Virus record (IMG/VR): IMGVR_UViG_3300009177_000720
Source: a virus
DNA length: 64,000 nt
Direction: 5' to 3' (one strand)
Each line of letters starts with the position of its first letter. Position 1 is the stretch's first letter. The notes below the pieces were generated by a model that was not told the origin of the DNA, did no database searches, and saw nothing but the letters and a program-made list of their open reading frames with translations. Of this stretch, positions 1 to 33,080 are shown piece by piece. The position numbers and the translations under genes were made by a program.

Positions 1-78
1 TGCATACTTTACAAGGGTTTGTAGTGCATCCTTTAGGGATGAGGCGTTCATTTCGCCATGATTGTTAAACATATTCAT
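1..78 (-). CDS. N-terminus of probable major capsid protein (runs off window edge): MNMFNNHGEMNASSLKDALQTLVKYA...
   Basis: ATG at 78 with AGGAGA RBS upstream; open to base 1; lies directly downstream of a decoration-like gene in the head operon. Product call is positional only. Confidence 0.45.
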   Translation of the reverse strand, partial: MNMFNNHGEMNASSLKDALQTLVKYA

Positions 79-198
79 AATGTCTCCTAGTGGAATTTTT
101 TGCCAGTCTTACCAGCGACACACTCTCGTGTGATAGAGTGTTCTATGAACGTTAATCCATAAAACACTTGAACTTTATTCAGTCAGCTAATTAATCAA

Positions 199-849
199 TT
201 AGACTGGTGGGCTGAACCAGAAGGTTGCAAACGCAAACTGCTTGGTAGTGGTGTTAAGAGCCTGTACCAAGTTGCTTGGAGTGGTTACCAAAGAACCGTT
301 GGTCTCGAATCCAAGGAAACGAGCTACGGTGGTTCCAGTACCAGCGGCTGGAGTCAAAAGACCAGCAGAGGTAAAGTTAAGAGCTGCACCGATACCTAGG
401 GTAACGTTGGTTGGTTGAAGACCGGTAGTAGCGTTAGTGTCACATGCGTCAAGAGAGACGGCATATAGACCCTGCTTGTCCCAGCAAGTTACCTTGCCAG
501 AGCCAGTTGCAGTGTGAGGTCCAAGGACCGCACCGCCAGTTACCTGTTGACCAACAGTTCCACCAACAACAGAACCGAATAGGGTTCCGTATCCAGTGAT
601 ACCTTCATCGGCCAAGAACAATGGACGGTCGCTACCAGAAGTAGCTAGAGTTACAACTGGACGGTGCTCAACAGAACCGGAGTTGTCGTATCCGTCACGG
701 AATACATCATAAGCAGCCTTATCGGAGCTGGCGGCTGGGTAGCCCTTGATAGTAACAACTTCACCACCCTTAAGTAGCAAGGATGCTGCATCATAACCGT
801 CAAACTGACCTAATGGCTGAGTGCCTGGTTGCAATAGTTTTAGAGACAT
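199..849 (-). CDS. Probable capsid decoration/cement protein
   Basis: 216 aa, Gly/Thr-rich, beta-type (GSGKVTCW...GLYAV); similar to 7554..8243; next to the putative capsid gene. Confidence 0.5.
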   Translation of the reverse strand: MSLKLLQPGTQPLGQFDGYDAASLLLKGGEVVTIKGYPAASSDKAAYDVFRDGYDNSGSVEHRPVVTLATSGSDRPLFLADEGITGYGTLFGSVVGGTVGQQVTGGAVLGPHTATGSGKVTCWDKQGLYAVSLDACDTNATTGLQPTNVTLGIGAALNFTSAGLLTPAAGTGTTVARFLGFETNGSLVTTPSNLVQALNTTTKQFAFATFWFSPPV

Positions 850-979
850 TTTATTTTCCTATAATCTCAATATCACATTAACGTGATGTTGGTTACTTAC
901 ACCTTAAACTTACAAAATCTAACAAACATATTCCCTTATTACCAGATTTTGGTAAAAAAGTGATTTAAATTCCATTTAA

Positions 980-2236
980 TTATGTTGGAATTCCATATTC
1001 TTTAAGAGCGTTATCCAAATCATCATCTGGTTTGTTGGAAACCATTACATTTCCAGGGGTTTTGCTTCCTGGTGGAACTTGATAAGGAACGTTCTGATAT
1101 TCAGAGCCAAAATCTTTATTAGCCTTGGATTGGGCCGCAATTAAATCACTTGAGGCTTTTTCTTCAATTGATTTCGCATCTTTAAGCATCTTAAGAATTT
1201 CCGCAACGGAAGATTTAAATGGAGAAATAGCCCTTACTACATCTTCAAAATCATCTGCCAATAAAGAAGTCTTACCTCCAACTAAGTGAGTATCTTCAAC
1301 AAGAGAAGTTAAAAATCCCTTATCTTTGGTATGACGAGTTTTATAAGCAGTGGAACTGAAATTAGCTTCTACTTGATCCATGAAGCTAGACATATTATAA
1401 ATCAAAGACTGTAAATTCTTATAAGCTGCAAGAACGGTCTGAGTTTTTGGTTGTTGAGCAATTTGCATCAATTCAGATGCGTCTCTTGGCTTTTCTAGCT
1501 CTCTAATGGCTCCCTGGCTGGCATCATAGGCCGTCATAAATGCATTTAATCTAGCCTTTAAACCTTGTACGTCTTGTTTAAGCTCTTGATCATATTCATG
1601 ACCAACACCCCAAGAAACGCTGCTGGCTAAGAAGTCATCTAGTTCGCCCTTAAGTCTTTCAGCGTTCTGTTGCAAACCTTTATCAAGATTTGGTAAATGC
1701 TGATGAGCGTAAATAGCACCCAAAGCAACTGCCACAATGGCAACTATGGCTAAAGGGCCGATGGCCTCTTTCTTTAGTTGGCCCTGATTAACTTGCTCTA
1801 AACAAGTATCAGCCAATACACGTAGCTCATCTTGATTCTTATTATCAAGATCATTACCAATTCTAACAAGAGATAGAACTAATTCTTTTTCGGCATATTT
1901 GCGATGTGTAGATAGTCCATCTGGAGTCTTGTGAACGATATGTAAATTGATGTTTTGTCTCTCAATTTCGCTCTCAACAAGACCATTTAACTTATCATAG
2001 GAAGGAGATACCACTACGGAATTTGGGTGAGCAACTTCCATAATGTTCTTTTTATATTCCATGCTCTTTGGAGCATCTGGTTTGACGCCGTACAACGCTT
2101 CAATAGCGGAGGCATCCAAGGAGTCAGCTCTACCAGTTTGTTCTAGCTTTTTCTTAGCTTCGCTAGAATCATTGGAGATCATGCCTTTTTCTTGGGCTAT
2201 CTTGACAAAACTGTCGAAAATCTCACTTCTACTCAT
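980..2236 (-). CDS. Putative internal head/ejection protein with one hydrophobic helix
   Basis: 418 aa; AHP domain shared with 6336..7463; helical-hairpin motif; LKKEA followed by IGPLAIVAIVAVALGAIYA. Confidence 0.45.
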   Translation of the reverse strand: MSRSEIFDSFVKIAQEKGMISNDSSEAKKKLEQTGRADSLDASAIEALYGVKPDAPKSMEYKKNIMEVAHPNSVVVSPSYDKLNGLVESEIERQNINLHIVHKTPDGLSTHRKYAEKELVLSLVRIGNDLDNKNQDELRVLADTCLEQVNQGQLKKEAIGPLAIVAIVAVALGAIYAHQHLPNLDKGLQQNAERLKGELDDFLASSVSWGVGHEYDQELKQDVQGLKARLNAFMTAYDASQGAIRELEKPRDASELMQIAQQPKTQTVLAAYKNLQSLIYNMSSFMDQVEANFSSTAYKTRHTKDKGFLTSLVEDTHLVGGKTSLLADDFEDVVRAISPFKSSVAEILKMLKDAKSIEEKASSDLIAAQSKANKDFGSEYQNVPYQVPPGSKTPGNVMVSNKPDDDLDNALKEYGIPT

Positions 2237-2264: not shown

Positions 2265-2279
2265 AATATGCCCGGTTAT
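2265..2279 (-). promoter_or_regulatory. Putative late promoter motif ATAW-N4-GCATA (ATAACCGGGCATATT)
   Basis: Recurs upstream of genes at 7494, 19604, 25106 and on the + strand at 57636. Confidence 0.5.
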
Positions 2280-3379
2280 GCCACTTTTTCGGCTACGTCA
2301 TCAATAAACATGTCCACAATCTGCTTTTTGGAAGTAAAATATCTAGGGATTAAAACAATATTGTCTCCCTCTGATACTTTGTTATTTGAAACAATTCTAC
2401 TCTTTATAACTTGAAAGGCTGGAGAAGATCGAATGAGAGCTTCTTTACCTTCTAGTCCAGAATATACTTCTTTAGCAAACATAACTAACATGGTCTCAAT
2501 AGAAGACTCATTATTTGGAACAGCTTCTGCCCAAACACGATTTACATTTTTTTGTTCATTTCGGTAACTTGTATTAACTTTGAATTTAGTTTGTGTGGAA
2601 GTTGGGGCCGCTGGAGCGGTAGTTGGGGCTGCCGTATCACTAACAGGCTTTCCTTTTTGAACTGTATTGTCCAATGCGTTTGGTCTATCCAAAAACTTAT
2701 TGACCACATCACCAGCAACCATTAAACCTGCTGATGCAATAGCGATCTTAAATACCCATCCCAATACTTTACCTAATAGGTTAGCGGTTGCACCCTTACG
2801 ACTACTGAACATTGAAAAGAAAGGAGATGCAGCTTCTTTTGTAAAACTCATGCTGTCTTTTTCAAATTCAATCATTGCTAGTTTAAGAAGCTTCGCATCA
2901 CGAAATAATTGTCTGCTTGATTTCTTCTGCTCTAGCATTTGGGCGGCTTTCTCAGCTTCATCTTCAGTTGGTGCTTTATTATGCTCCTGAACAGATGATG
3001 CAACCATTCCATCAACTTCTGATGAGGAAACTTGTTTCCCACCACTTAGCGCTGACTTTAATTTATCCCAAATAGACTGAAGAATACTACCAACATCAAT
3101 ATGGAATATTCTCATAGCTAAACCAAAAAGTATTCCAAGCCAACCCAAGCCCATTGCACGAAAGGCAATGGAAATGGCGCCTGGAGCTAATAGATTTAAT
3201 AAGCTACCAGTTTTGTCTTCCGGATTAATGTTGTTGCCAACATACCCTTTAACTTTATCAATCAGTGATGAAATAGCACTACCCGCTTGAGCAGTTTTAG
3301 ACAAACCCTCATCGGATAATAGTGTTTCCACTATCATAGTATCAACTATAAAACTAATTTCACTGTTGGTGTGGGTCAT
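2276..3379 (-). CDS. Putative membrane-interacting virion protein
   Basis: 367 aa; hydrophobic segments (GAISIAFRAMGLGWLGILFGLAM; LLGKVLGWVFKIAIASAGLMVAG); LSKTAQ and FTKEAA motifs. Confidence 0.45.
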   Translation of the reverse strand: MTHTNSEISFIVDTMIVETLLSDEGLSKTAQAGSAISSLIDKVKGYVGNNINPEDKTGSLLNLLAPGAISIAFRAMGLGWLGILFGLAMRIFHIDVGSILQSIWDKLKSALSGGKQVSSSEVDGMVASSVQEHNKAPTEDEAEKAAQMLEQKKSSRQLFRDAKLLKLAMIEFEKDSMSFTKEAASPFFSMFSSRKGATANLLGKVLGWVFKIAIASAGLMVAGDVVNKFLDRPNALDNTVQKGKPVSDTAAPTTAPAAPTSTQTKFKVNTSYRNEQKNVNRVWAEAVPNNESSIETMLVMFAKEVYSGLEGKEALIRSSPAFQVIKSRIVSNNKVSEGDNIVLIPRYFTSKKQIVDMFIDDVAEKVA

Positions 3380-4983
3380 CTTTTAAACCTAATAACCTCA
3401 TTGGAACGATCTTGTAAATCGTCCAATTTTCTCATATTATCTTTGGCAATAGTAGCTTGATTACTAATAACTGCCATTTCTTGGCTATTGAAGTTTGCTT
3501 TTTCAGAAGTTGCATCGCGAGAGATGGCATATGTCTGATAGAACAATAGAATAGTAGCTTCGGTAATTTGTACAATCTTCTTTAGTGTATCAAGAAAGGT
3601 GACATATTGACGAGGCGGATCTTTTAGCCAGGTGGTAATTCCCTCTGGTCCAACTAGTAATCCAAAATTAACCTTAGACATTTTCAAATAATCTGAGTTA
3701 ATTAATCCAATTTCTTGAACTACAGCAGTTGCAGAGCTTTGGACTTGAGCGGCCTGTGGGCTCTTAGCATTTCGTGTAAGGGCCTTGTAAGCTTCAAAGA
3801 ACTGAAGGATTCTATTCAAATCAACAGCTTCCAAAGTTAGAGGCATTGCTCTGATAACAGGATCCAACATTTCTGGTGTAACCTGTCCGCCCTGACCTGG
3901 TTGTCCTCCTGGTTGCTGACCTGGCTGAGCGCCTGGTTGAGTAGTTCCAGGAGTGACAACAGCGCAAGGCTTTCCATTAGCTCCAGTTAACTTGCTACCA
4001 TATTCTTGAACAATTTTTAGATATTTAGCTGCTAGTTTGCTGTAATTAGCCTTTTGCTTATCAGCGGCGGCTCCATATTGAGCTAACCATTGTGCTCTAC
4101 GATACAGTACATTAACAGCAACACATGGGGCATCGCTATCAGCTTGCGTGGCGCTAATAGTAGTTGCTGGTTTCTTATCTACGGCTGGTAATACTACCTT
4201 CATATTGCTTAGCCAGGCCATAAATGCGCCAGAATCTGCAATGTCACTTGCTAGTAATTTGCGAGTAGCCCTATCAAAATGTGGGAATCCTCTAGTTCCT
4301 TCGAAGATGTCGCCTTCACCAAGAGTGTCACTCATAAATCCGTCTACAACATCCTTTGGATCAAATTCGGCCTTTTGTTCTGGCTTGGATACGGCATCAA
4401 CAGGTGGGCGCTGAGCAGTTACTAAATAACCATTTAGCTCACCAATCATTTTGCTCAACATCAATTTGGTAGCATTACTCTTTTCGTTATCTCTCAAATA
4501 CACCAAGTATTCGGTCAGTGCTTTAACGTTAGCAACGGCTGGTACCTTAATTGGACGGCGAGTTATTTCTTCTCTTGATCTATCGCTACGCATAGATTCG
4601 AAATCCCAAATATCTGGGTCATCTGCTTGCGTTGGATGTGCTTCGTCTGGGGACCAGGCAAATCTTTTACCTTCCCAAGTAAACTTTTTAGCAGCGCACC
4701 ACAAAATGAAGTCGCCAAGAGTTCTTAAATTCTCTGGAGTGGCAGTTAGATTGTTTGGATCGGCACCCTGCTCAAGACCTAAAGGGTTTCCTTTGGCGGG
4801 AGCATCGGCAGTGTTGTATTGTCTTTGTAGATTTGTAACTAAAGCATGAGCCGCATGATAAGTAAGAAAATCTGTAGGCGGAACGGTGCTCTTGGCTGCG
4901 TTCTGGGCCTCTTTAACTAAAGAGGTAGCGCCAGACACCAAAAGATCTTTTAGTAATTTTTTATCGTCATAGATGAAACTCAT
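3376..4983 (-). CDS. Hypothetical virion-region protein
   Basis: 535 aa; LVKEAQ near N-terminus; QPG-repeat linker; 4-nt overlap with the downstream gene. Confidence 0.6.
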   Translation of the reverse strand: MSFIYDDKKLLKDLLVSGATSLVKEAQNAAKSTVPPTDFLTYHAAHALVTNLQRQYNTADAPAKGNPLGLEQGADPNNLTATPENLRTLGDFILWCAAKKFTWEGKRFAWSPDEAHPTQADDPDIWDFESMRSDRSREEITRRPIKVPAVANVKALTEYLVYLRDNEKSNATKLMLSKMIGELNGYLVTAQRPPVDAVSKPEQKAEFDPKDVVDGFMSDTLGEGDIFEGTRGFPHFDRATRKLLASDIADSGAFMAWLSNMKVVLPAVDKKPATTISATQADSDAPCVAVNVLYRRAQWLAQYGAAADKQKANYSKLAAKYLKIVQEYGSKLTGANGKPCAVVTPGTTQPGAQPGQQPGGQPGQGGQVTPEMLDPVIRAMPLTLEAVDLNRILQFFEAYKALTRNAKSPQAAQVQSSATAVVQEIGLINSDYLKMSKVNFGLLVGPEGITTWLKDPPRQYVTFLDTLKKIVQITEATILLFYQTYAISRDATSEKANFNSQEMAVISNQATIAKDNMRKLDDLQDRSNEVIRFKR

Positions 4984-4994: not shown

Positions 4995-6335
4995 TTATGC
5001 TGTAGCATTGCCTCTAGAATTTGTGTTCAATACAGGTGTACTCATATCCGTTTTAGGCTTTGGTGGTACTGGAAGCGGCTCATTAGCTAAAGTATTCTTG
5101 ATATGTGTAGCTAATCCTGAAAGAACTTTAGCTATAATATCTGGATTCTTTATATCATTTTCATCATACTTAAGAGACTGCATCATAAACTGCCTAAAAG
5201 AAGCTTGGTCTTTAAAATTTGCCAATGAAAGCTGAGGAAAAGTATATGTTGCATTAGGGCTGCTTCCTTTATATGGAAGCGTTACATTGAATAAATTAGC
5301 TGCACCTAAATTGTTCATTACTGACTTATATTCTGGTTTGATTTGTCCGGGATCTTCTCCGCCCAATTTAGCCGTAATCATTGGTGATTGCTTGGAAATA
5401 GCAGCCTTATAAGCAGGATGATTAAGAACATACTTATAGAAATACTGATAAAAATATGATAGCTTATCAACTATCTCAGTGATTACTTCGGCACTCTTAC
5501 CCAGTTCTGCTTGAGATACTTTACTTAAAAACACATTGGATTTGGATGTTGCTGGATATTCTTTTACCTTAGGGATAACGCTAGCAAATCTTGCTAAATC
5601 CTTAGCCGTAAAAGTATGGCTAGCTTTTTGTGCAACCGTTCCCATAAAGGTAGTAATTTGCACCAACGCATCAGCTAGGGCATATGTATCCATGACTGCA
5701 TTTTGAGTTCTAAAATCCCAAACACCATCCGGAATTTTCTCTCCTGGTTTTGGAGAACCAATTCTTCGAAGGCCATCTAAAACATTATCCATCTCAATAT
5801 TATCAGTTGGTTTTTTATCAGCCCTATCCACAGCGTCTGGGTTTGGATCAAATTCTACTCCATGAATAGAAGAGCCATTCGTATACTGTTCGGCAATAAA
5901 GTCATTAAAATCTTTTCTAGGATCGTTCTCTACTAGAACTTCTTTGGTGACGGTCTTCTTAGGATTTTTCGGATCTGGAGCCTGGGTAAATTTAGTCTTG
6001 TAATCAACTGCAACTTTAGCAAAATTCTGAATTGACTTTTGCATTTCCTTAATTGCTGGTGCTGCACTTGGAGCAACAGCATGACCACCGCCACCACCAC
6101 CAGTATTCTGGCGTTGTTGGGCAGGTGCTGTTCCACCTAGCATATTTTCTGCTCCACCATAATCGGCCTTTGGAGCTGGTTGATTTGCGCCACCAGTATT
6201 ATTGGCGGGTGCCTTAACCGGTTGAACGGTCGCAGGACCAGTAGCACCAGGTGTAGCCTTAGCTTTACCTAGTTGTGCAAACTGAGCCTCTTTTTTTATT
6301 TCAGCTACAAGCTTTTTAAGTCTCTCATTACTCAT
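4995..6335 (-). CDS. Hypothetical virion-region protein
   Basis: 446 aa; IKKEAQ then a Gly/Pro/Ala-rich linker; DGVWDFRTQNA loosely resembles a peptidoglycan-binding DG-x-W-G-x-x-T motif. Confidence 0.6.
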   Translation of the reverse strand: MSNERLKKLVAEIKKEAQFAQLGKAKATPGATGPATVQPVKAPANNTGGANQPAPKADYGGAENMLGGTAPAQQRQNTGGGGGGHAVAPSAAPAIKEMQKSIQNFAKVAVDYKTKFTQAPDPKNPKKTVTKEVLVENDPRKDFNDFIAEQYTNGSSIHGVEFDPNPDAVDRADKKPTDNIEMDNVLDGLRRIGSPKPGEKIPDGVWDFRTQNAVMDTYALADALVQITTFMGTVAQKASHTFTAKDLARFASVIPKVKEYPATSKSNVFLSKVSQAELGKSAEVITEIVDKLSYFYQYFYKYVLNHPAYKAAISKQSPMITAKLGGEDPGQIKPEYKSVMNNLGAANLFNVTLPYKGSSPNATYTFPQLSLANFKDQASFRQFMMQSLKYDENDIKNPDIIAKVLSGLATHIKNTLANEPLPVPPKPKTDMSTPVLNTNSRGNATA

Positions 6336-7463
6336 TTAAGCCCCTGCATTTCCGCCTAGAGCGCTTCTGATTTCACTAAATAATGAATTAGCTTTATTTT
6401 TAACACTTTGCATGTAAGGTTCATCAAAATCAAATCCCGGAGAAAACTTATCATAAATTAAGTTTCCCAAACCTCGCTTCATATTATTGAGTGAGCTAAG
6501 AATTTCTGTGAACGAATTTGCTTTTCCAATAGCTGACTTTCCAAGATGTCCTGTCTTAAAGTTTCCACCAACCTCAGAAAAAGTAACTTTGCTTTGTTCA
6601 ATATCATCAACATTCTTTAATCTTTGTAACTCTAAAGCTCTTGCTTTATCAAAAGCAGATTTACATGCTTGCATATACTCACTTACGAAAGTAACTAAAT
6701 ATTCCTTACCGGTTTTAACGGCTGGTGCTACTTCTTTAGGAAATCTATCATCTGATGCTAGTTGAGCAAGTTGATCCAATAAAGTTACTACTTTACCAAG
6801 TGGTCCAATAGCTCCACCCAAAGTTTCACTGATGTATCTTGCATTTGCTCTGTTACCATCACTCCAAGGTGGGTTAGAAATTAACTTCATCTCAAGAGGA
6901 TCTGTTTTAGGAGCTGGTCCCAAATCAAGTTTGAAAGGAAGTGTTGGCCCGTAGTTTGGACGAGGCTTAGGATCAGGATAAGGTTTCCAATCTTGTCCTA
7001 AAACCATTTTCACCGCATTAACAATTTCAGCAGAAGAGGCAAGTTTACCGGTTGGCATCTTGTCAATCATTTTGATATTTTGAAGATGTTGGTCTAGAAT
7101 GGTTTCAAACACAGCTTCATCGGCATCTACGCCTTCAAGCTTGTGACTTCCCTTTGGGTGAGCCTCCTCAACCAAGTCTTCGCCCTTTTCTTTGGAAGTT
7201 TGATAAAGGGTATCGGCCTGCTTAAAGGCCATAAATTTGGTTTCAACTTCATCAGCATACTTGTCAAATCCGGCCTCTCTAAGGCCGACAGAAAGCTTAA
7301 TAAGATTAGCCGTAAGCGTAGATGAAGGGGTTAGATCGGCCTTCTTAGTAATAGAGGCAGTCTTAACAAGGTCTTGTTCCTTTACAAGGCCCTTTTCCCT
7401 TGCAACCTTCTCTAAAGAGCGCATCACAGCGGAATCTTGAAATTTTACATGCTTAAAAGTCAT
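6336..7463 (-). CDS. Hypothetical virion-region protein (AHP-domain paralog of 980..2236)
   Basis: Start moved to MTFKHV (GAGG RBS); LVKTAS, helical hairpin, EEAHPKG...KMPTG. Confidence 0.6.
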   Translation of the reverse strand: MTFKHVKFQDSAVMRSLEKVAREKGLVKEQDLVKTASITKKADLTPSSTLTANLIKLSVGLREAGFDKYADEVETKFMAFKQADTLYQTSKEKGEDLVEEAHPKGSHKLEGVDADEAVFETILDQHLQNIKMIDKMPTGKLASSAEIVNAVKMVLGQDWKPYPDPKPRPNYGPTLPFKLDLGPAPKTDPLEMKLISNPPWSDGNRANARYISETLGGAIGPLGKVVTLLDQLAQLASDDRFPKEVAPAVKTGKEYLVTFVSEYMQACKSAFDKARALELQRLKNVDDIEQSKVTFSEVGGNFKTGHLGKSAIGKANSFTEILSSLNNMKRGLGNLIYDKFSPGFDFDEPYMQSVKNKANSLFSEIRSALGGNAGA

Positions 7464-7493
7464 AAGTAGCCTCAATAGGTGGATTTATTCTAT

Positions 7494-7553: not shown

Positions 7554-8243
7554 TTAGAACCACAAAGCTTCAATCATTGGGTTCATTGGCGTTGGTGGGG
7601 CTGTAACCATCGCTACAGCAGGATGAACGCTGCTTGGTCTTCTAGTAGTCAAGAAGCCCGTCTCACTAACGTATAAATTAGCACGGACTGGGTATTGCTG
7701 GTTTGTTTCATACTGGTCGGTTTGAAAAAACATTCTATTAAACCAAACAGTTACTCTACCAGAACCCTGAGTGCTATCATCACCGGGAATATTAGCTACT
7801 TGATAAGTATAATTTACAATTGCTCTAATAGCATTGGGCGAGCCAGATCCTGTTAAATCGAAATTTAATGGAGTACCAGCTATGAATGTAATTACACCAT
7901 TAACAGGATTCAAAACAACGTTGACAGTGGATGTAAAGCTGCTTTTTACTATATTAGGTTTTTTTAATTCCGCTTTAATATCAATGGGAGTCACTATGCT
8001 TCCACCGGGGCCTGGGACACCAACAGCAGGAACAATAACAACTTCATTCCAAGAAACGTTGGTAAATGCTTTAGTTTTAATATCGTCAATAATACCAATG
8101 GGGGCAGTTCCGTTACTAACGGTAGCCATTACTTGATTACCAATAACAGTTAATTCAGCGATTTGACCCGGCTGAAATTCAGCGGAGGGATCGACTATAA
8201 AATTGGATGGAAGTGTATTACCTACTTGTACTAATCTTAGCAT
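7554..8243 (-). CDS. Probable capsid decoration/structural protein
   Basis: 229 aa, beta-rich; MLRLVQVG...FQPGQI...GSGRVTVW parallels MSLKLLQPG...LKGGEV...GSGKVTCW of 199..849. Confidence 0.5.
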   Translation of the reverse strand: MLRLVQVGNTLPSNFIVDPSAEFQPGQIAELTVIGNQVMATVSNGTAPIGIIDDIKTKAFTNVSWNEVVIVPAVGVPGPGGSIVTPIDIKAELKKPNIVKSSFTSTVNVVLNPVNGVITFIAGTPLNFDLTGSGSPNAIRAIVNYTYQVANIPGDDSTQGSGRVTVWFNRMFFQTDQYETNQQYPVRANLYVSETGFLTTRRPSSVHPAVAMVTAPPTPMNPMIEALWF

Positions 8244-8288: not shown

Positions 8289-9368
8289 TTAGTCGCTATC
8301 CTCAAAGGTTTCACCTGAACTACCATCGTGAATTGATGATGGTTTTTCATCAATTTCAGCATTCAAAATGTCATCAGATTGAGCATCATCCATTACAATA
8401 AGACCTTCTAAATCACCAAAATCTGGTCTTGGCTTTGGTCTGCTGGATGGTTGTCTGACAGTTGGAGGTGGCTCTTCGATGCCCTCTTCCATCATTTTAT
8501 GAGCCTTCCATTTCTTGTAAAATTCATCAAAAGATTTTGGTTGAGGAACGTCAACATTATTATCATCAGCCATATTGAATTCAGTGCCGTGATGCTTAAG
8601 GTTTTCCACCATTTTCTCTGGCGTCAATCCCTTAGTATGCCAATCACTCACTGAAAGCGGATTCTTTGGCTTATGTGGCTTTCCTCTAACATCATTATCA
8701 TCAAGCCCTAATTCTTGAGCAATGCTCTTGAAAACTAATTCATCTGGACTTGGCTTATCATCTTGCTTTGGTTGCTTGAGAAGACTTTGCATCTCAATTT
8801 CTTGACCGGGTTGAACTCCGACTGGACCAGGGTTAGCCATCCATTGAGAAACATTTTGTTGAAAATTTTCAGATTCGGATGGTCTATTCGGATCAATTGG
8901 AGCCATTGGATTCTCGATCCATGACATGAATCTCTGAGGAGAGCCCTCTGGATTCATTAATTCGGCAGCTTCTTCTTCACTCATAAGATTATGTCTACCA
9001 ATGAAAGAAGCAATTTCTTTATCAGTATATCCTAATCTTCTAAATGCAGTATTTACTCTAGCTTTAGAAAAAGCATCACCCTTACCTAATCCTTTTAGAT
9101 CGGCTTGGGTTACACCATTTTCCATCAATGATTGCATTGATGGCATCATCTTTACTTTAGTATCATGCTGAGCGGCAATTTTAGATAAAATCTGAAGAAC
9201 TTGTTCTGCCTTAGCAGTCATGCCAGCCTCTTCAAAAATTTGAGCCGCAGAATGAAGATACTCCACTGCCTGAACAAGGCTATTCATGCCTTGCTTTTTT
9301 TCATGAGAGTGTAGCTCGCGCTGCATTCCATGGATTAGCTCATTTTCGAAAAGACTTTTTTTGATCAT
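8289..9368 (-). CDS. Hypothetical head-region protein with N-terminal helical-hairpin module
   Basis: First 65 aa are clearly paralogous to the whole 9380..9607 protein; acidic Pro-rich remainder. Confidence 0.65.
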   Translation of the reverse strand: MIKKSLFENELIHGMQRELHSHEKKQGMNSLVQAVEYLHSAAQIFEEAGMTAKAEQVLQILSKIAAQHDTKVKMMPSMQSLMENGVTQADLKGLGKGDAFSKARVNTAFRRLGYTDKEIASFIGRHNLMSEEEAAELMNPEGSPQRFMSWIENPMAPIDPNRPSESENFQQNVSQWMANPGPVGVQPGQEIEMQSLLKQPKQDDKPSPDELVFKSIAQELGLDDNDVRGKPHKPKNPLSVSDWHTKGLTPEKMVENLKHHGTEFNMADDNNVDVPQPKSFDEFYKKWKAHKMMEEGIEEPPPTVRQPSSRPKPRPDFGDLEGLIVMDDAQSDDILNAEIDEKPSSIHDGSSGETFEDSD

Positions 9369-9379: not shown

Positions 9380-9607
9380 TTAAGAAGTCTTGCCGGAAAG
9401 CTGTTGAGCCAATCCCTGCAAGACTTCAGTTACTTCATCAGCTTGTTCGGTCATGCCGGCCTGATCAAAGATCTCGGCAGCAGCATTTAGATAATCAGCA
9501 GCTTGTGCTAGCTTACTAAATCCATGCTTATCTTCAACTTGTTTTGCAACAAGTTGCTTTTCCATCGAATGATAGATCTCGTCTTCAAAGCTGCTTTTTT
9601 TAAACAT
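9380..9607 (-). CDS. Stand-alone helical-hairpin module protein (75 aa)
   Basis: MFKKSSFEDEI...AADYLNAAAEIFDQAGMTEQADEV; paralog of the 8289..9368 N-terminus. Confidence 0.7.
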   Translation of the reverse strand: MFKKSSFEDEIYHSMEKQLVAKQVEDKHGFSKLAQAADYLNAAAEIFDQAGMTEQADEVTEVLQGLAQQLSGKTS

Positions 9608-21591: not shown

Positions 21592-23484
21592 TTAAAACTT
21601 ACGAGGGATAAAGGCGGTCGTAACCAGTGGTTTATTACGTTGTGCGAAACTCTGCTGCTGAAGAATTGGATTATTATTAGTGAAACCCCTTGTAATGATG
21701 AACTTATATGCCAAATAGGCATTCAATAAAGCCATAAAACCGTCGTTAGGGGTACTACCCTTGACATAATGAATGGTTGGGTCAGCTCCCATCCTAGAAA
21801 TGGATGGCTTAATTTCCATGCTACAACAATGGTCAATCAGCCAAGCAACCTTTTCATAATCTCCAAAAGGAAATTTAATCATTCCCTTTTTCATTTGATC
21901 ATATAGCTCACCAATGTAAAAGTCTCTTTCAAAAACTAATTCTTTAGGAAAAGCATCCGCTGAGAACTTAATATGATCATTAACCTTATTATGAGCGCGG
22001 GAAACTAAATACTTATCGCCATAAATATTATGCAACATTGCAGAGAAGTCATTAGAATAACCAATGTCTCCAATTGCTAATTGAACACTGTATTGTCGCA
22101 TTATTTGATCAATAAGACCCTTTTTGCTTTCCATGTCATTTCTTTTGAACTTGGTAGCAAACTCAATATTTAATAAATTTGGTCCTTTGGCAGATAAGAC
22201 TACGGCCGTACTATAAGACTGTCCTGCCGCTCGTATCTTATCCGGGTTCGCTAATTGCTCTAAGTCTGCCCTAGCACCATAGTCGATTCCTAGTACCACT
22301 ATTTGCGGATTAATACTATTTCTTACTGGAACAATACGGGCCGCAAACTTCCTGTCGTCTCTGCAAAATTCTTTAATTTCTTCTGGAGTAATAGGGCTAG
22401 AATCACCTTGGAAAAATTCTCCCAAGACTTCGTTCATGAATACACGCTCGGTGTTGATTGGATGTTTACCAGGCATTTCATTATCAATGTCCTCTCTGGT
22501 AAACATTGGCATGTAAAGCTGATTAATATGAAAACCAACCATCTGGCAATCTTCATCATCTGGATCTTTAAGAGCGACCCACTTGCCACGTTCGGCGGCC
22601 TCTAGTTTGTTTTGTTCGTGTCCGCAGTGAGGGCACTTGACAATGAATCCGTGAATCCAAATCTTCTTCCAATCATCTGATCCTGGAGTATAAAGTGGGA
22701 AATGTTTATCACAACCCTCACAACCAAGATAATAGTATTGTTGGGAAGAAGTCTGCCACATCTTGTGAAAGTCAGATCCCTTGCGTCTTGGAGTTCCAAA
22801 ATAAACTTGTACTCCCTTGGATGGTCTACCATACTTGGCAGTGGTTAGAATCTTTAATGCGTTTCCAATGGCTTGACCGGTGGTCTTCTGAACTTCGTCA
22901 AAGAAAAGAATATCAGCAGTACGACCCATGATTCTGTCAGCGTCTAAACCAGTTGACTCAACCCATAAATGGTTTCCACCTTGGAACTGTTTAAAGTGCA
23001 AGGAGTCATTGGTTGCGGTTGATTGATCAAGCAAAGTCTGCATGTAAGACTTTGGTTTAGCGGCAGTCTTTTTATCCGTCTCTTGTCCCATCTGAACTGA
23101 TGATGAGATGATTTGGTTTAACTTGGTCTTAGAATAAGCAGCAGCCAATTCCAATTGAGGAAAGGCATGAATGATTCTAATTGGTGGCTTTTCACTTGTT
23201 CCAAATAATCCGCAGCCCATGAAATACATTTCAAGGGCGCTGGCCATGGTAGTGGCGCCGACCTGACGGCCTTTAACGATAATGAGCGGCTTAGAAGTTG
23301 GTTCTAGAGCTTTAATACCAATGTATCTGTAAATGTCGGCGAAAGGTTTATACCCATTGCCTCTTAACCTAAATGGCTTTCCATCAAGTGTTAAATACGT
23401 TTCGCAAAAATAAACTGGATCAAGATTCAGTAAATCTTTCTTTAATTTGTTAAATAGGTCTTTATCATTACTGCTAGCGGGCAC
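21592..23484 (-). CDS. Terminase large subunit (GpA-like)
   Basis: Walker A KGRQVGATT, Walker B ILFFDEVQ, GTP coupling motif, CEGC...CPHC zinc ribbon, GFHINQL, nuclease GIDYG and NDGFMA. Confidence 0.9.
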   Translation of the reverse strand: MPASSNDKDLFNKLKKDLLNLDPVYFCETYLTLDGKPFRLRGNGYKPFADIYRYIGIKALEPTSKPLIIVKGRQVGATTMASALEMYFMGCGLFGTSEKPPIRIIHAFPQLELAAAYSKTKLNQIISSSVQMGQETDKKTAAKPKSYMQTLLDQSTATNDSLHFKQFQGGNHLWVESTGLDADRIMGRTADILFFDEVQKTTGQAIGNALKILTTAKYGRPSKGVQVYFGTPRRKGSDFHKMWQTSSQQYYYLGCEGCDKHFPLYTPGSDDWKKIWIHGFIVKCPHCGHEQNKLEAAERGKWVALKDPDDEDCQMVGFHINQLYMPMFTREDIDNEMPGKHPINTERVFMNEVLGEFFQGDSSPITPEEIKEFCRDDRKFAARIVPVRNSINPQIVVLGIDYGARADLEQLANPDKIRAAGQSYSTAVVLSAKGPNLLNIEFATKFKRNDMESKKGLIDQIMRQYSVQLAIGDIGYSNDFSAMLHNIYGDKYLVSRAHNKVNDHIKFSADAFPKELVFERDFYIGELYDQMKKGMIKFPFGDYEKVAWLIDHCCSMEIKPSISRMGADPTIHYVKGSTPNDGFMALLNAYLAYKFIITRGFTNNNPILQQQSFAQRNKPLVTTAFIPRKF

Positions 23485-24145: not shown

Positions 24146-25075
24146 TTATCCCTTGTAGTTTGCTGCCCAGTCCATATTGTCGCTAGAAGCTACATCTACG
24201 TCTTGGTCTGGCATGAATCCTCTGTCTTGCTTGACAGCATAGCCCATGTCAGCTAGTAGTTGCATAACTTCAGCTTGCTCACGATCATTTAGTTTATAGA
24301 ACTTAACTTGTCTTGCGTACAAGTCTTCGATATCATGTCCGCCAGAAACCATGCCGTTAATACAGACTCTGGCAACTCTGGAAATCAAAAGAGGAACAGT
24401 AACGAACACACCTTGAACGCCAGTAATCTTCTGAGCTTCTTTAACTAGTCCTTCAGAGAATTCTGCCTTCTTCTTGCGGCTCTTTTTCTTGCTGCTCTTA
24501 ACTTTATCAAGACGGTCATGCAAGCGCTCAATACCGTTATCAATGATGGAACGAACTTTTTCAATTTGATTGGCATCTAACTCACCATCGATGTCATTTC
24601 TCATGGCCTTGGAAACTTCGTTGTCTAATCTTTCAAGATAAGCAACTGCTCTCTCAAGTCCTGCGGTGTCATAACCAGAGTGCTTTGGAACGTCATCACA
24701 ACGCTCTTTAACCCATGCAATAAATCCGGTTGGACCACGCTTGGACCAATCCCATTTTTCATTCTTAGCGGCCTTAGCTGGGTCTTCATCCATGGCCTTG
24801 CTTTTATCTTCTTCAGGTTCAGATACTTCAAGAACAGGCTCTGGGTCTTCGGTTCCTGGAGGGGCGCCTGGAAGATCCATTACAATTTCTAATTCTACTG
24901 GGTGATCGGTAACTTCTACTGGAGAAAAGTCTTCTTCGTGGTGGTGATGACCGCCATGTTCTTCTGGCGAATCAACTACTTCCAAGGGGACCAATTCCAT
25001 TCCGCCACCACCCATTGGGGCGCCCATAGAAGGGTCGACAACTATTAGTTCTTGTGCTGTTGACTGTAATGACAT
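24146..25075 (-). CDS. Hypothetical head-region protein
   Basis: 309 aa; acidic/His N-terminus; LVKEAQ; GAGGT RBS. Confidence 0.6.
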   Translation of the reverse strand: MSLQSTAQELIVVDPSMGAPMGGGGMELVPLEVVDSPEEHGGHHHHEEDFSPVEVTDHPVELEIVMDLPGAPPGTEDPEPVLEVSEPEEDKSKAMDEDPAKAAKNEKWDWSKRGPTGFIAWVKERCDDVPKHSGYDTAGLERAVAYLERLDNEVSKAMRNDIDGELDANQIEKVRSIIDNGIERLHDRLDKVKSSKKKSRKKKAEFSEGLVKEAQKITGVQGVFVTVPLLISRVARVCINGMVSGGHDIEDLYARQVKFYKLNDREQAEVMQLLADMGYAVKQDRGFMPDQDVDVASSDNMDWAANYKG

Positions 25076-25138: not shown

Positions 25139-26698
25139 TTAAATATTCCATTTATCTTCATAGATGAGACTTTCCGGTCCCAAAGTTCCATAATCTGGAT
25201 TCATTTCATCAATTATGGTATCTTCTTCTTCCGAATGGTTAAACCCATCTGGCAAGCCGTATAAATCTGAATCTTGTTCATGAGATAAGTATTTATCCAT
25301 TATTTGGCTTAATAATTCTTCATCTACCGAATCACCATCTTCCTCATAGTCGCGGCCATAATTTAAGGTAGTTGGTGGTTTACCCTCAAAGTCAGGGTAG
25401 AATAGGGGAGGCTCGCCTCCACCAATTTCGGTGGCGTGCATAAAACTGGAGTTATCTCCTAGATTTGGGAATCCAGGGAAAGTACTCATATCACCAGGTT
25501 CACCTTCAGGTCCAAGCATAAAAAGCCTCTGAAAAGAAGCGTCGTCATGCTCAGGAGGAAGGGTCTCAATTTCATCATCTATTGGAAAATCAATAGCAGT
25601 TTTCATAATTTGCGAAATTAATTCGGCACGTGCTTTGATTTGAGGATTTTTCTTGGTAATTTCCCCACTGTCCTCAATCCAGGAATCATCAGCCTTGTAC
25701 TTGTCCTTCATCTTCTTGCGCTTGGCCTTTAGAAATTCAGAGACGCTTTTATACTTTTCCATGGAGTGCCAACCGGCTCCGGGGCCGATGTGCTCGAATC
25801 CAGGGATGTCGTAAAGGTCGTAATTACGATAGAAGGGTTCCTTGAAGCGCGTTTGATTGACAATGGCTGGGTCAGACTTGTATTTTTTCTTTTTAGGAGC
25901 TGGCTCATTAACACCACCCCCGCCTTGGAAATAAGCCTGCTTTGGCATCCCCTTAGCTTTCATATAGTATGGTTGAACTACTTCGGTAATTGGAATCTCT
26001 TCCCATAAATTCATTTTGCTAATATAGAAAGCGGCCTTATCAGCATCACGATTAAATGCTTCATTCAATTTTTCAGTCATTGCTTTTTCACTAGCAATTT
26101 TAACTGAAGATGGATTTCTAGTAACGTAATCAATGATACTTTGATCAATATCAAAATCTAATTTGGAAGCTAAATAAATAGCTCTAATTACTCTATTCTT
26201 GTTAGAAGTTAAAGTAATTTCTGGAGACAAACAAGTTTTGATTTTTCTTTCCTTAATATCTTGAAAGCCTTTGTGAGTTGGATCTATTAGATTTTTAAGA
26301 TCTAAAGACAATAGTAGAGCGTTACAGGTAAAATCCCTGCTAAACATCTCTTTTTGCATCTCAGTTGGGCGAGCAATTCCTTGCTTAGCAAGAATGGCAT
26401 CAATATTTGGTACATTAAAATTGGAAGAAAAGTCCATTTTAAATGAACCAATGTAAATGGAACTATGACCATCATCATGATCTCTTCTAGTTACATTGTA
26501 TTTTTTGCCTAAAATAGTGCCGAATTCTGAAGATAAATATCCAACTGTCTTGTCACCAGTTGTAATGTCTAAATCCGAAATATTCTCCAAGTGCTTGAGA
26601 TAGCGATCTCTAGGCGTACCACCGCAGATATAGGCTTCAGATGAGCCTATTTTCTTTTGGGTATCCTGCATTTGTTGGAGAAGTTCTCGAAGTTTCAT
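25139..26698 (-). CDS. Class II (CCA-adding/poly(A) polymerase family) nucleotidyltransferase with long acidic C-terminal extension
   Basis: YICGGTPRD, DLDITT (catalytic DxD), SRDFTCNAL, IDPTHKGFQDI, NRVIRAI; extension begins with a scaffold-like peptide. Confidence 0.85.
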   Translation of the reverse strand: MKLRELLQQMQDTQKKIGSSEAYICGGTPRDRYLKHLENISDLDITTGDKTVGYLSSEFGTILGKKYNVTRRDHDDGHSSIYIGSFKMDFSSNFNVPNIDAILAKQGIARPTEMQKEMFSRDFTCNALLLSLDLKNLIDPTHKGFQDIKERKIKTCLSPEITLTSNKNRVIRAIYLASKLDFDIDQSIIDYVTRNPSSVKIASEKAMTEKLNEAFNRDADKAAFYISKMNLWEEIPITEVVQPYYMKAKGMPKQAYFQGGGGVNEPAPKKKKYKSDPAIVNQTRFKEPFYRNYDLYDIPGFEHIGPGAGWHSMEKYKSVSEFLKAKRKKMKDKYKADDSWIEDSGEITKKNPQIKARAELISQIMKTAIDFPIDDEIETLPPEHDDASFQRLFMLGPEGEPGDMSTFPGFPNLGDNSSFMHATEIGGGEPPLFYPDFEGKPPTTLNYGRDYEEDGDSVDEELLSQIMDKYLSHEQDSDLYGLPDGFNHSEEEDTIIDEMNPDYGTLGPESLIYEDKWNI

Positions 26699-29303: not shown

Positions 29304-30014
29304 TCATGGCTTATTATATCCTAATCTGCCTTCACGGGTATCAAAGATGGCATGATAAGGAACATTAAGACCTTGAGTCTGTTGAGCAACATCACCACCA
29401 GGAACCTTAGCTCCGTTATTTAATTCAAAACCGGTTTCAAAGTTGTAAGACTTCTTATCTAATTCGCATTGCCACATGTGCTCGCCTACGCGCGCAATCT
29501 GGACGCCTGGATGATCTGGACAGTATCTAGTGCTCAAAGGAGCCTCTAAAATATCGTACTGCTTGGTCATTTGGCTCTTATCAATTGCTTTTTCTGATTC
29601 GCCAATCTTATTGGTATCGTGAAGCTCTTTACGAGGATTCTCGTACTTCTTCTTTAACTCTTCGGTTCTAGCGTCTAACAAATCCTTGCGACCTTCAACT
29701 GGAGGAGCAGCAATAGATAGAAGTAACTCATCTAGAACGGAAGCTTGCTTTTTAAGAGCTGGGTCACCAGAGGCATCAAAGGCCGCAGCTAGGGCAGCAA
29801 TTTCTTCAATGGCTTGTGGGGTAATTTTGGACTCTTCAGGTGGTTCCATTTCGCTGACTTGTTCAGCAGCGTTCTTTAATAGAGCGGCAGCTAGAACACA
29901 AGATTCAGCTACAACCTTCATGCTACCCTCGTGGTATTCGGCTAGCAGGACGGCTTCATTGTTTGGGCTTTCCAACCAGGAAGCGATTGCGCTTAACATT
30001 TCAGAAATTCTCAT
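29304..30014 (-). CDS. Hypothetical protein with helical hairpin and C-terminal Cys/His motif
   Basis: IAALAAAFDASGDPALKKQASVLDELL; LSTRYCPDHPG...WQCELD. Confidence 0.6.
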   Translation of the reverse strand: MRISEMLSAIASWLESPNNEAVLLAEYHEGSMKVVAESCVLAAALLKNAAEQVSEMEPPEESKITPQAIEEIAALAAAFDASGDPALKKQASVLDELLLSIAAPPVEGRKDLLDARTEELKKKYENPRKELHDTNKIGESEKAIDKSQMTKQYDILEAPLSTRYCPDHPGVQIARVGEHMWQCELDKKSYNFETGFELNNGAKVPGGDVAQQTQGLNVPYHAIFDTREGRLGYNKP

Positions 30015-30983: not shown

Positions 30984-30986
30984 AGA

Positions 30987-32600
30987 TCACCCGAAGATTT
31001 TAGAGTTATTGAAAACGGCTCCTTCGTAAGTTTCATCCATTCCTCTACGATAAAGTGGTCTGCAATTTCCATCCTTATCTTGGTATACCTTGTGAGCTGG
31101 TAGGCCGGTATGGGCACAAACAGGGTGCTCACTAGTAGAGGTCTTAATCATATGGGAACACTTAGATGGTGCGGAAGCTTCCTTCTTGTTGCCAGACAAA
31201 CCCTGCATCAACAACTGGAATCCAGTTGCATAAGCCTTGGTGTCACCTGATCTAGACAATACATTTAAGGCATCTTCAGCCTTTTCGTTATTTCCCTCAG
31301 CAAGAGCGGTTCTTAGGTTGTTAAGTACATCACTTGGCTTCAATCCAAATAATGGAGAAGCAGCAGCGGCAGCCTTGAAGTCACTAGCGTTGTTAACATA
31401 CAAACCGTTAACGCCATCAGCATTAAATGGAGCAACAGTTCCGTTGCATAGCATTACACTTGGCTTTACTACTTTACCTTCGGCAACCTTGACTGGAACA
31501 GTAAATCCAACTCTGCCAGCATCAAGAGCAACGCTGTAGAAAATAGTAGCATCATCACTCTTGGTGACTGTTACTTGTGGATTCTTGTGACCATAACCAG
31601 TTAGCTCTCTGATAATGTATTCTCTTGCAACCTTGACCTTATCGGCTCCAAACTGCCATGCAGCCTGTCCGTAAGGAGAAGTAAATTGCTTTTCAAAAGA
31701 AACGAACTCATCATACTTTGGAAGTTCAACTTCCTTAGCGGATGCTTCGGCAACCTTTTGTCCAACGATTTGGTTGGTGAAAAATTCAGACTTGCCCTGA
31801 CGGGTAGCGGTTAGCTTGGTTAATGCAATCTCTGCATCGCTAATCTCTCTATTCTCGGAGGCAGCCTTGGTTAGAACAGACAAAATACCAGTGGCATTCA
31901 TCTTTAGCTTGGTGCCAGCTTGGGTAGTTAAGTAAGTCTTGATATTGGTGTGATTTAGTTCTTGTGGGCCAGTGTTACCCATGAAAACAGAAGCTTCAAC
32001 AACTTTGTTATCTGGTGTTTCAACTGGAATATAAAGACTAGTGACACCCTTTGGAGTCTCATAGTCAGCTTTGATAACAAGGAACTTATCGTTACCATCA
32101 TCGACTGCAATTGCAGTTGGTTTCAAGTTCCAGGCATCCAAAGAACTAGCCACTGAGGCTAATGCTTTGTTAGCTAACTGTTGGGAGTACATCTTCAATG
32201 GAGCATGCTTATCAAAAACACTATTAAGTGCATTGGCAAGAACGGCATCGCCAACTTCGAAAGGATTAACTTCCTTGGTGGCCTCATCACGCTCAAAAAT
32301 TTGTGGGGTAGCTAGCTCAGTCATAGTGCCAAGTTCGTTTTGAAATAATTCAGCGAACTTAGTATTACGAGAATGTAGCTTAGTGTAGAGGGCTTTCAAT
32401 TCAGCCTTACGAATAAACAAAGTGTTATTAGCTGCCATCTTTCCAATTACTCTGGACATGGCGCCAATGGTTTGATCACCTGGATAGGCATCAACGGCCT
32501 TGGCCAACTTTGCCGCTAGGATTGGAGTAGCAATTCTCTCATTGTCTTCCACTGACTTAGCTAGAGAACCTACTAATTGTTGTATTTTGTCGAGGCTCAT
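30987..32600 (-). CDS. Hypothetical virion-region protein
   Basis: Start moved to MSLDKI (AGGTG RBS); two related alpha/beta units; Cys/His C-terminus after KKEAS. Confidence 0.6.
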   Translation of the reverse strand: MSLDKIQQLVGSLAKSVEDNERIATPILAAKLAKAVDAYPGDQTIGAMSRVIGKMAANNTLFIRKAELKALYTKLHSRNTKFAELFQNELGTMTELATPQIFERDEATKEVNPFEVGDAVLANALNSVFDKHAPLKMYSQQLANKALASVASSLDAWNLKPTAIAVDDGNDKFLVIKADYETPKGVTSLYIPVETPDNKVVEASVFMGNTGPQELNHTNIKTYLTTQAGTKLKMNATGILSVLTKAASENREISDAEIALTKLTATRQGKSEFFTNQIVGQKVAEASAKEVELPKYDEFVSFEKQFTSPYGQAAWQFGADKVKVAREYIIRELTGYGHKNPQVTVTKSDDATIFYSVALDAGRVGFTVPVKVAEGKVVKPSVMLCNGTVAPFNADGVNGLYVNNASDFKAAAAASPLFGLKPSDVLNNLRTALAEGNNEKAEDALNVLSRSGDTKAYATGFQLLMQGLSGNKKEASAPSKCSHMIKTSTSEHPVCAHTGLPAHKVYQDKDGNCRPLYRRGMDETYEGAVFNNSKIFG

Positions 32601-32621
32601 TTTCAGCACCTATTCCGTATG

Positions 32622-33080
32622 TTATACTAACTCAGGGTATTTATCTAATACCAATTTTTTAGCTGATTCTGGCAATTGATTCAAAAGAGCTTTGACCAGC
32701 TTCTTATTGGTAGCCAACTTAGCAGGCAAATATTCTGGAACTTTTGAAACTTCACTAGAAGGAATGCCCAACTTATTGGAAGCTACCCTTACGATTGGGT
32801 CTCCCTTGTAATACACCTGTAGCTCGCCAGCAGTCTTGCTAACTAGTACTTCCCAGTGGTTGGCAGTCTTCTGCTCTTCCTCTGGTTGGTATAAGGCTAC
32901 AATGTACTCGCCATCTTCAGCGCTTTGTACTTGCCATAAATCGGCGGCTTTATCACTGTCCTTGAATCTAACAATGTCAAAAGCAACGGTCTCAAGACGG
33001 TCTTTTACATCGCTGAGTCTGTAAGCCCTCTTGTAGATCTTGTTCTCCAAACCTGAGTAATCTATCGAAAATTTTGACAT
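32622..33080 (-). CDS. Hypothetical protein
   Basis: Start moved to MSKFSI (GGGAGA RBS); first gene after the terminator. Confidence 0.6.
   Translation of the reverse strand: MSKFSIDYSGLENKIYKRAYRLSDVKDRLETVAFDIVRFKDSDKAADLWQVQSAEDGEYIVALYQPEEEQKTANHWEVLVSKTAGELQVYYKGDPIVRVASNKLGIPSSEVSKVPEYLPAKLATNKKLVKALLNQLPESAKKLVLDKYPELV

Follow-up and report, generated by a model that had tools for sequence, protein, structure and literature searches.

To our knowledge, the specificities of prohead proteases are known for few phages, and the giant phages among them (T4, phiKZ and SPN3US) essentially all cut after Glu. The cleavage motif of T4 is (L/I)-x-E. In T4 (gp21), phiKZ, 201phi2-1 and SPN3US (gp245), a protease of the gp21/assemblin fold is encoded between the portal and capsid genes and is considered to act on itself, on the capsid and portal proteins and on numerous internal proteins of the head, in most cases by taking off N-terminal propeptides. 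Its target is a short motif shared by many unrelated head proteins. The herpesvirus assemblins (UL26/UL80-type) share this fold, lie N-terminal to a scaffold protein from which they release themselves, and cut after Ala at M and R sites of consensus (V/L)-x-A↓S, for example YVKA↓S, with Lys, Asn or Gln at P2 and hydrophobic P3/P4 (the arrow marks the scissile bond, here and, as presumed, below). The protease of SPN3US cuts after Glu at A-X-E, preferring Val at P4 and Ser at P1′ (PMC10052503). A comparable arrangement is found in the 64,000-nucleotide stretch of viral DNA analysed here, IMG/VR record IMGVR_UViG_3300009177_000720 (the window). A predicted protease of the gp21/assemblin fold is encoded between the portal and capsid genes and, in contrast to those of T4, phiKZ and SPN3US, continues, in the same polypeptide, into roughly 950 scaffold-like residues. 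A short motif recurs in many unrelated head proteins, several of which have short N-terminal leaders that each end in it, much as T4-type leaders do. Val at P4 and Ser at P1′ are also seen in this motif but, unlike in T4 and SPN3US, it has Ala or Gly at P1, Lys at P3 and a hydrophobic residue (Phi) at P5. The conserved junction does not have the Glu of the T4 and SPN3US sites, and Phi-x-E-x-A and related patterns are not enriched in the window. Phi-x-K/R-x-A/G followed by Gln, Ser or Ala is read here, at a probability of roughly 0.6, as the preferred recognition and cleavage site of the prohead protease, with the Ala or Gly as the residue that would precede the scissile bond.

The head module occupies the left 33 kb of the window, with the terminase, portal, protease fusion and capsid genes, and the right half (33-64 kb) carries replication and repair genes (DnaE-type polymerase, primase, RecA, DnaJ and SbcC). 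All long open reading frames, and thus all window features given below, are on the minus strand. A first-pass annotation had reported a recurrent motif left of 33.2 kb. Tested as [LFIVM]xKxA[QSA], that is, with a hydrophobic residue at P5, Lys at P3, Ala at P1 and Gln, Ser or Ala at P1′ (a numbering that assumes a cut after Ala), the motif occurs there 21 times, against 4.5±2.1 in whole-protein shuffles, none of which reached 21 in 1000 trials. To the right of 33.2 kb there are 2 sites against 3.1 expected. The form LVKxA accounts for 8 of the left-hand occurrences (0.43 expected), and the reversed motif is not enriched there (5 against 4.4). Since block shuffles of 10, 15 and 25 residues still give about 4.8 sites (0/400 reach 21), the excess is not caused by locally Lys/Ala-rich segments. 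An unbiased enumeration of gapped triplets placed L.K.A first after the Pro/Gly runs of low complexity (24 against 6.6, p = 1.6e-7). Phi-x-K-x-A is found 51 times where 21.6 are expected and Phi-x-R-x-A 17 times where 8.9 are expected, and counts are at expectation when P3 is Glu, Gln, Ser, Thr, Asn or Asp in the same phase or when P5 is not hydrophobic; the enrichment therefore depends on a hydrophobic residue at P5, a basic one at P3 and Ala at P1. The P1′ residues are Gln (9, against 2.3 expected), Ala (9) and Ser (4). Half of the sites, 11 of 22 in a count that also admits Tyr at P5, fall within the first 65 residues of their proteins, where 17.7% are expected (p = 5e-4). The peptides listed in the first-pass annotation are all present in the genes named, including LVKYA at residues 22-26 of the capsid protein; the list includes looser variants (YKFAS, YKFAQ, KKEAS, LVTEAQ, PKQAY and NKTAY), and some of the hexamers in it are probably structural or due to chance.

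The same pattern is found in related genomes. IMG/VR holds hundreds of relatives on contigs of up to about 480 kb, two of which, of 446 and 481 kb, are rated complete, and one relative was binned with a metagenome-assembled genome (MAG) of Bacteroidota. A megablast search of the portal region against deposited phages gave no match; the clade is known only from metagenomes. Together with 53% identity to the capsid protein, 33% to the portal and 34% to the protease of Bacillus phage G, the empty megablast result and the large IMG/VR relatives place the window, as far as sequence comparison goes, in a phage G-related clade, as part of an uncultured huge phage of about 450 kb, a size judged from the complete relatives. 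The sample compared below consists of 40-kb head modules taken from nine long contigs, ten genomes with the window included; seeding with the protein encoded at 4995-6335 had recovered one near-identical fragment only. The order in which the protease fusion gene stands between the portal and capsid genes is identical in all nine relatives, and each of them has 12-18 motif sites where about 4 are expected. Pooled over the relatives, the stretch from the start of the fetched head module through the capsid gene holds 129 sites against 34.7, and the genes downstream of the capsid gene hold 1 against 1.7. Of the two complete relatives, that of 446 kb has 21 sites against 5.3 in the 60 kb surrounding its head module and 30 against 23.6 in the remaining 387 kb. 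A second peak, at 360-380 kb of the same genome, consists of single scattered matches in unrelated enzymes and was taken as chance.

Conservation over the ten genomes is 0.83 at P5, 0.49 at P4, 0.80 at P3, 0.53 at P2, 0.73 at P1 and 0.61 at P1′, on a background of 0.59, and the Lys and Ala of the motif are more conserved than the other Lys and Ala residues of the same proteins (p = 0.002 and 0.003, respectively). The motif is thus genuine and particular to the head module. It is under selection and, as judged from these alignments, purifying selection is confined to P5, P3, P1 and P1′. In orthologues of 22-34% identity, the position of the motif is kept amid changed surroundings and P1 can be Gly, and N-terminal sites keep their position in orthologues of 23-60% identity. 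Internal sites are placed at boundaries between conserved and unconserved sequence or ahead of Pro/Ala or Gly linkers, which agrees with the first-pass description of sites between a short leader and a linker or new domain, and the leaders have no sequence in common beyond the motif itself. Several strict matches are unconserved in orthologues, for example site 649 of the protein encoded from 10383, site 150 of that from 9622 and site 314 of that from 3376. The same data bear on an explanation without any recognition role, in which the motif would be a structural by-product of amphipathic helices or coiled coils in Lys/Ala/Leu-rich, scaffold-like proteins. The proteins of the head half are Ala-richer than those of the other half (9.2% against 6.9%), yet neither whole-protein nor local-composition shuffles approach the observed count, and a helical pattern should also have raised the same-phase P3 variants and the reversed motif. 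An exposed helix Lys should be poorly conserved, but the motif Lys stands at 0.80 against 0.55 for background Lys (p = 0.002). The alternating conservation of positions i, i+2 and i+4 forms no helix face and fits better with a peptide read in extended conformation, and the preference for Gln at P1′ has no helical rationale. As a general account, a helix by-product is accordingly quite improbable.

The capsid protein links the motif to a mapped cut in a cultured relative. Its gene, recognised from its translation and its orthologues, runs off the left edge of the window (1-78, start codon at 76-78), and LVKYA is encoded at nucleotides 1-15. LVKYA↓A is invariant in the nine relatives, where full orthologues of 337 residues match phrog_2522 at 5e-80 and show the 53% identity to phage G gp27 noted above. 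The protein is a small one of HK97 type (a full orthologue is at L095:14326-15339:+). In the clade it has an extra 41-residue leader bearing LVKYA↓A, which the phage G capsid protein lacks. N-terminal sequencing of the phage G capsid protein showed that its 282 residues (31.2 kDa) are shortened to 255 (28.2 kDa) (Hua et al., 2017, PMC5646251, Table 1). The gp27 sequence places this cut within GRVALA27↓Q28AMANPIR, for which the mature protein has a calculated mass of 28.17 kDa, and all nine relatives have the homologous KIALA68↓QAMANPIRR without variation. Given the sequenced terminus in phage G and this invariant homologous site, capsid maturation in the lineage cuts between Ala and Gln, and P4 is Val or Ile.

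The motif itself is also enriched in the head module of phage G (8 sites against 1.5±1.2, 0/1000), with 2 against 2.2 in a 49-kb control region. N-terminal sites are found at residue 5 of gp13, residue 4 of gp38, residue 16 of the portal and residue 18 of gp9; that of the portal, MAKQA↓A at residues 16-21, likewise lies ahead of a Gly-rich stretch. Phage G gp19 is a stand-alone protease of 300 residues rather than a fusion of 1190 residues. Its catalytic domain is preceded by LVKTA↓A and followed, in the tail, by LEKVA↓S and LLKIA↓S, a layout expected for self-processing. The literature searched contains neither a cleavage motif for phage G or its relatives nor an Ala-specific or K-x-A phage prohead protease. 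It is very improbable that the sites are cut by another enzyme, either a host protease or a second phage protease, in place of the N-terminal domain of the polyprotein. There is a precedent in the staphylococcal phage 80alpha, which uses a host protease for its capsid and scaffold leaders. ClpP and ClpX are encoded by phage G itself and were detected in virions (PMC12484599). The motif, however, travels with the protease lineage across hosts, from Bacillus/Lysinibacillus in phage G to a clade with a Bacteroidota-binned relative, and it flanks the protease domain itself. Moreover, Pfam and PHROGs searches returned no other protease in the head module, and no signal-peptide-like hydrophobic core precedes the sites.

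The protease-scaffold polyprotein (10383-13955, 1190 residues) comprises a protease domain, a coiled coil, two repeats of ~78 residues, a Pro/Ala linker, and helical and acidic C-terminal domains. Its N-terminus (residues 106-214) matches the 'head maturation protease' family phrog_18299 at 1e-14, and phrog_2774 is matched as well. At 50% identity the polyprotein family falls into more than 200 clusters, and it consists almost entirely of fused forms of 1100-1600 residues. The protease domain (residues 1-245, 13221-13955) is the part that is 34% identical to gp19. Sequence searches of the PDB with this domain, as a single sequence and as a profile, returned coiled-coil noise and no protease, and no sequence similarity to herpesvirus assemblin is detectable. 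An AlphaFold2 model of residues 1-260 has a mean confidence score (pLDDT) of 81. Compared with 48,161 chains in VIA-align, its best match is T4 gp21 (5jbl, Z 10.3, 128 residues aligned, 3.4 Å), followed by the protease of varicella-zoster virus (1vzv, Z 9.9, 114 aligned, 2.5 Å). Unrelated beta-barrel matches reach Z ≤7.5 and MCE-domain ones ≤7.3, and the protease of human cytomegalovirus is at Z 7.5. In Foldseek these families again came out on top, although with weak E-values (0.03-0.1). The protease domain is thus modelled with the T4 gp21/herpesvirus assemblin fold, which bears out the first-pass proposal of a fold shared with assemblin. The putative catalytic residues, His133 (C-x-DH, nucleotides 13557-13559) and Ser184 (VSMG, 13404-13406), do not vary among 35 sequences that range down to 45% identity, and both have counterparts in phage G gp19; Ser184 is the VSMG serine named in the first-pass annotation.

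Predicted cut sites flank this domain and separate the modules that follow it. FKKFA↓A (residues 33-38, 13842-13859), upstream of the catalytic core, is present in 10/10 relatives and in 85% of a diverse set of 118 polyproteins. Its counterpart in the alignment with gp19 is LVKTA↓A at residue 41, and it is a candidate N-terminal self-processing site. Directly after the protease domain lies LNRIA↓D (residues 263-268, 13152-13169), with a site in 9/10 relatives, where P3 is Lys. LDKLA↓N (residues 383-388) and INKQG↓Y (residues 403-408; both within 12732-12809) mark the start of the first scaffold repeat and are kept in 10/10 and 8/10 relatives, respectively. LVKSA↓Q (residues 655-660, 11976-11993) directly precedes the Pro/Ala-rich linker; its Leu, Lys, Ala/Gly and Gln are found in 10/10 relatives while P4 and P2 vary, and a motif is present here in 72% of the 118 polyproteins despite a poorly alignable region. 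Near the C-terminus, LRRTA↓G (residues 1147-1152, 10500-10517) is represented in 9/10 relatives, mostly as L/M-x-K-x-[AG]-G, and by a motif in 48% of the 118 polyproteins. Across these polyproteins, the motif recurs with P1 at residues 37, 659, 841, 1026 and 1151.

Other features of the polyprotein family stand beside these sites. Cys194, Cys197 and Cys208 (residues 194-210, 13326-13376) are invariant in a CxxC...C pattern, followed in the window by Asp209-His210, and gp19 shows the same Cys pattern. They may form a zinc-binding insert in an assemblin-fold protease. Many family members (P0055, P0056, P0071, P0094-P0096 and others) are 1500-1600 residues long and have an insert of ~370 residues near protease residue 105, and two short fragments of the family carry Hint/intein Pfam domains (PF05203, PF01079, PF07591 and PF14890), which together suggests inteins inside the prohead protease gene. 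Cluster C mycobacteriophages (the Bxz1 group, including Myrna) likewise have, just upstream of the capsid gene, a protein of ~1200 residues with a homologous N-terminal protease domain, although the two proteins are similar over only about 110 residues of the protease core. In Myrna this is gp97 (L106:10701-14336), encoded directly upstream of gp98 and of the major head protein gp99. The record labels it a 'tape measure', but from its homology it is probably a protease-scaffold fusion, and that note is probably wrong. At the Myrna site homologous to the phage G capsid cut, the sequence is IQRLG↓Q, which fits Phi-x-[KR]-x-[AG]↓Q.

Outside the polyprotein, sites close to the N-terminus, at 1-65 residues from it, are found in the capsid protein, in the protein encoded at 18016-19572 and in seven further proteins. 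The first of the seven, of 418 residues (980-2236), carries FVKIA↓Q at residues 10-15 (2192-2209), aligned in 10/10 genomes, and the next, of 367 residues (2276-3379), has LSKTA↓Q at residues 26-31 (3287-3304), with Phi-x-K-x-A in 9/10 genomes and varying P4 and P2. In the protein of 535 residues at 3376-4983, LVKEA↓Q (residues 22-27, 4903-4920) keeps its exact register in just 1/9 by automatic column count; by eye, Phi-x-K-x-[AG]-Q lies a few columns away in 7/8 orthologues (22-33% identity), mostly with Gly at P1, and LVKEA↓Q is aligned with FSKKG↓Q and FTKEG↓Q. IKKEA↓Q (residues 13-18, 6282-6299) in the 446-residue protein at 4995-6335 precedes a Pro/Gly/Ala-rich linker and is kept as Phi-x-K-x-[AG] in 7/9 orthologues at 26-34% identity. 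LVKTA↓S (residues 36-41, 7353-7370) in the 379-residue protein at 6336-7475 is found in 8/10 genomes with variable P4 and P2. LSKIA↓A (residues 61-66, 9171-9188) in the 359-residue protein at 8289-9368 and FSKLA↓Q (residues 30-35, 9503-9520) in the 75-residue protein at 9380-9607 are each found in 9/10 genomes. The first ~70 residues of the 359-residue protein are paralogous to the adjoining 75-residue one, and its remainder is of variable length in relatives; the total length there, 134-312 residues, ruled it out as a candidate capsid protein.

The protein of 518 residues at 18016-19572 has a site at each of two positions. MQKIA↓Q at its extreme N-terminus (19555-19572) is present in 10/10 genomes, and this start is genuine, with a stop codon upstream and a ribosome-binding site. 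LVKEA↓S at residues 147-152 (19117-19134) is also found in 10/10 genomes, and over 70 loci its Lys, Glu and Ala are conserved, with unconserved sequence upstream and conserved sequence downstream. The same change from unconserved to conserved sequence is seen over 51 loci at LVKEA↓Q (residues 210-215, 24431-24448; 8/10 genomes) in the 309-residue protein at 24146-25075. LVKNA↓A (residues 151-156, 15928-15945) in the 246-residue protein at 15655-16395 is present in 10/10 genomes, with Lys, Ala and Ala conserved in 49 loci. In the portal (19643-21514, 33% identical to phage G gp14), VHKFA↓Q at residues 79-84 (21263-21280) is found in 8/10 genomes and is followed by a Gly-rich stretch and then the conserved portal core; over 80 loci its Lys, Ala and Gln are conserved while P4 and P2 vary. 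The 236-residue protein at 29304-30014 has LLKNA↓A (residues 45-50) and LKKQA↓S (residues 87-92; both within 29739-29882), each in 10/10 genomes and both grouped with the internal sites at boundaries.

Several findings weigh against the motif being a cleavage site of this protease. Pfam peptidase models (S77, S78, S80, U35 and S21) give no match at E≤0.01, so that its membership of the prohead proteases rests on fold, context and PHROG annotation. Residues 27-43 are modelled as a helix, in which FKKFA↓A has a pLDDT of about 70; the tandem FKKFAANLKKVA (protease residues 33-44) is likewise modelled as helical and resembles designed coiled-coil heptads, and FKKLAAELKKIA-type sequences match designed coiled coils. 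Conserved matches at residues 827, 837 and 1022 of the polyprotein lie within conserved, probably folded domains, and some matches are in conserved helical domains. With a copy modelled as helix and copies inside probably folded domains, some matches are unlikely to be cut, and a helix by-product probably explains some individual matches, such as that at protease residues 33-44. The head region of Myrna shows no enrichment of the motif with Lys (1 against 1.35) and a weak one of the motif with Arg (6 against 2.2). Finally, VALA↓Q, the one site of the family that has been mapped, agrees with the motif in having Val/Ile at P4, Ala at P1 and Gln at P1′ but has no Lys at P3, so the Lys may be dispensable for cutting and could serve, for example, in docking.

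This last point leads to the possibility that the motif serves chiefly for capsid targeting or docking and is recognised by the scaffold, the portal or the inside of the shell. It would then not be the scissile site, and any cuts would be made elsewhere or only at simpler A↓Q sites. The Lys and the hydrophobic P5 could then be read outside the active site, and the N-terminal clustering on many unrelated head-module proteins would resemble the capsid-targeting sequence of T4 type. Such a signal is nevertheless unlikely as the main role, because a tag makes little sense at the many conserved internal sites at domain or linker boundaries (residues 263, 383, 403, 655 and 1147 of the polyprotein, 151 of the protein from 15655, 147 of that from 18016 and 210 of that from 24146). 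It also does not account for the copies that flank the catalytic domain of the stand-alone phage G protease, nor for conservation that ends at P1′, with an Ala-Gln junction equal to the mapped cut. A single leader serves for both targeting and cleavage in T4 and SPN3US, and the docking explanation therefore partly overlaps with the cleavage reading.

Confinement to the head module, selection, placement, the flanking copies in gp19 and the modelled fold together support the first-pass interpretation of the motif as the site that the prohead protease would cut. If the motif is the cleavage site, the protease in the assembled prohead would first free itself at the sites flanking its own domain and would then dice the scaffold part of the polyprotein at the sites between modules. 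It would also trim the leader of the capsid protein and the N-terminus of the portal, and strip short N-terminal leaders, 5-65 residues long, from seven or more further proteins of the head module. These are probably cargo, internal or ejected. This scheme presumes that the K-x-A sites are cut by the protease of the polyprotein at exactly the bond used for numbering, that the leader-bearing proteins are packaged, and that the same enzyme makes the Ala↓Gln cut in the capsid protein. A wider proposal, more tentative and held at somewhat less than even odds, is that phage G-type megaphages and the large uncultured clade (>200 clusters) use an Ala-specific Phi-x-K-x-A↓Q code, by which the polyprotein would be diced into about eight or more pieces and many capsid-loaded cargo proteins would be marked for trimming. 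The hydrophobic P5 and the Lys would then be a combined docking and cleavage determinant, VALA↓Q would be cut without them, and P1 would be closer to that of assemblin than to that of T4.

The comparison with herpesvirus assemblin extends beyond the fold. The protease is N-terminal to a scaffold-like protein from which it is predicted to release itself, and the sites have in common Ala at P1, after which the window sites would be cut, a small or polar P1′ and a hydrophobic residue upstream. The herpesvirus-like cut after Ala proposed in the first-pass annotation holds for P1, in that the phage G capsid protein is cut after Ala (PMC5646251), but not for the register, since Lys is at P3 rather than P2. 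P2 is variable in the window and P5 is hydrophobic, often with Val at P4, so this is not the same motif, a difference that stands as a caveat to the parallel. The window motif also prefers Gln over Ser at P1′, and many more substrates are predicted.

The remaining genes of the head module include the large terminase (21592-23484) and two enzymes encoded between the portal and protease genes, a Cys-based phosphatase of dual-specificity/tyrosine type (14883-15653) and an SLT-type transglycosylase (16798-18012). Neither has a strict motif copy, and both may be virion-associated. A protein of 229 residues (7554-8243) shows 83-90% identity in the nine relatives, the highest in the module after the portal, and has no motif copy and no Pfam or PHROG match. 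It was considered as the capsid protein and rejected, as it has no similarity to gp27 and no PHROG match and the true capsid gene lies at the left edge. A CCA/poly(A)-polymerase-type nucleotidyltransferase (25139-26698) has 519 residues in the window, 485 in one relative and ~257 in eight, and its extra part opens with MPKQA↓YFQGGGGVNEP, similar to the start of the scaffold repeat, INKQG↓YYQGAGGVNEP.

The cleavage reading is directly testable because phage G is cultured and virion mass-spectrometry data exist; the searches in the 2025 multi-omics study of this phage were strictly tryptic (PMC12484599). An Ala-specific motif would be a new specificity within a known kind of system, with cleavage in the window phage presumed. 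If correct, it would predict mature virion proteins and packaged or ejected cargo over hundreds of uncultured genomes of about 200-480 kb. The protease-scaffold polyprotein would then be a parallel to herpesvirus UL26, and its enzyme a phage protease with the P1 preference of herpesvirus assemblin, which would bear on the shared ancestry of capsid maturation in tailed phages and herpesviruses.

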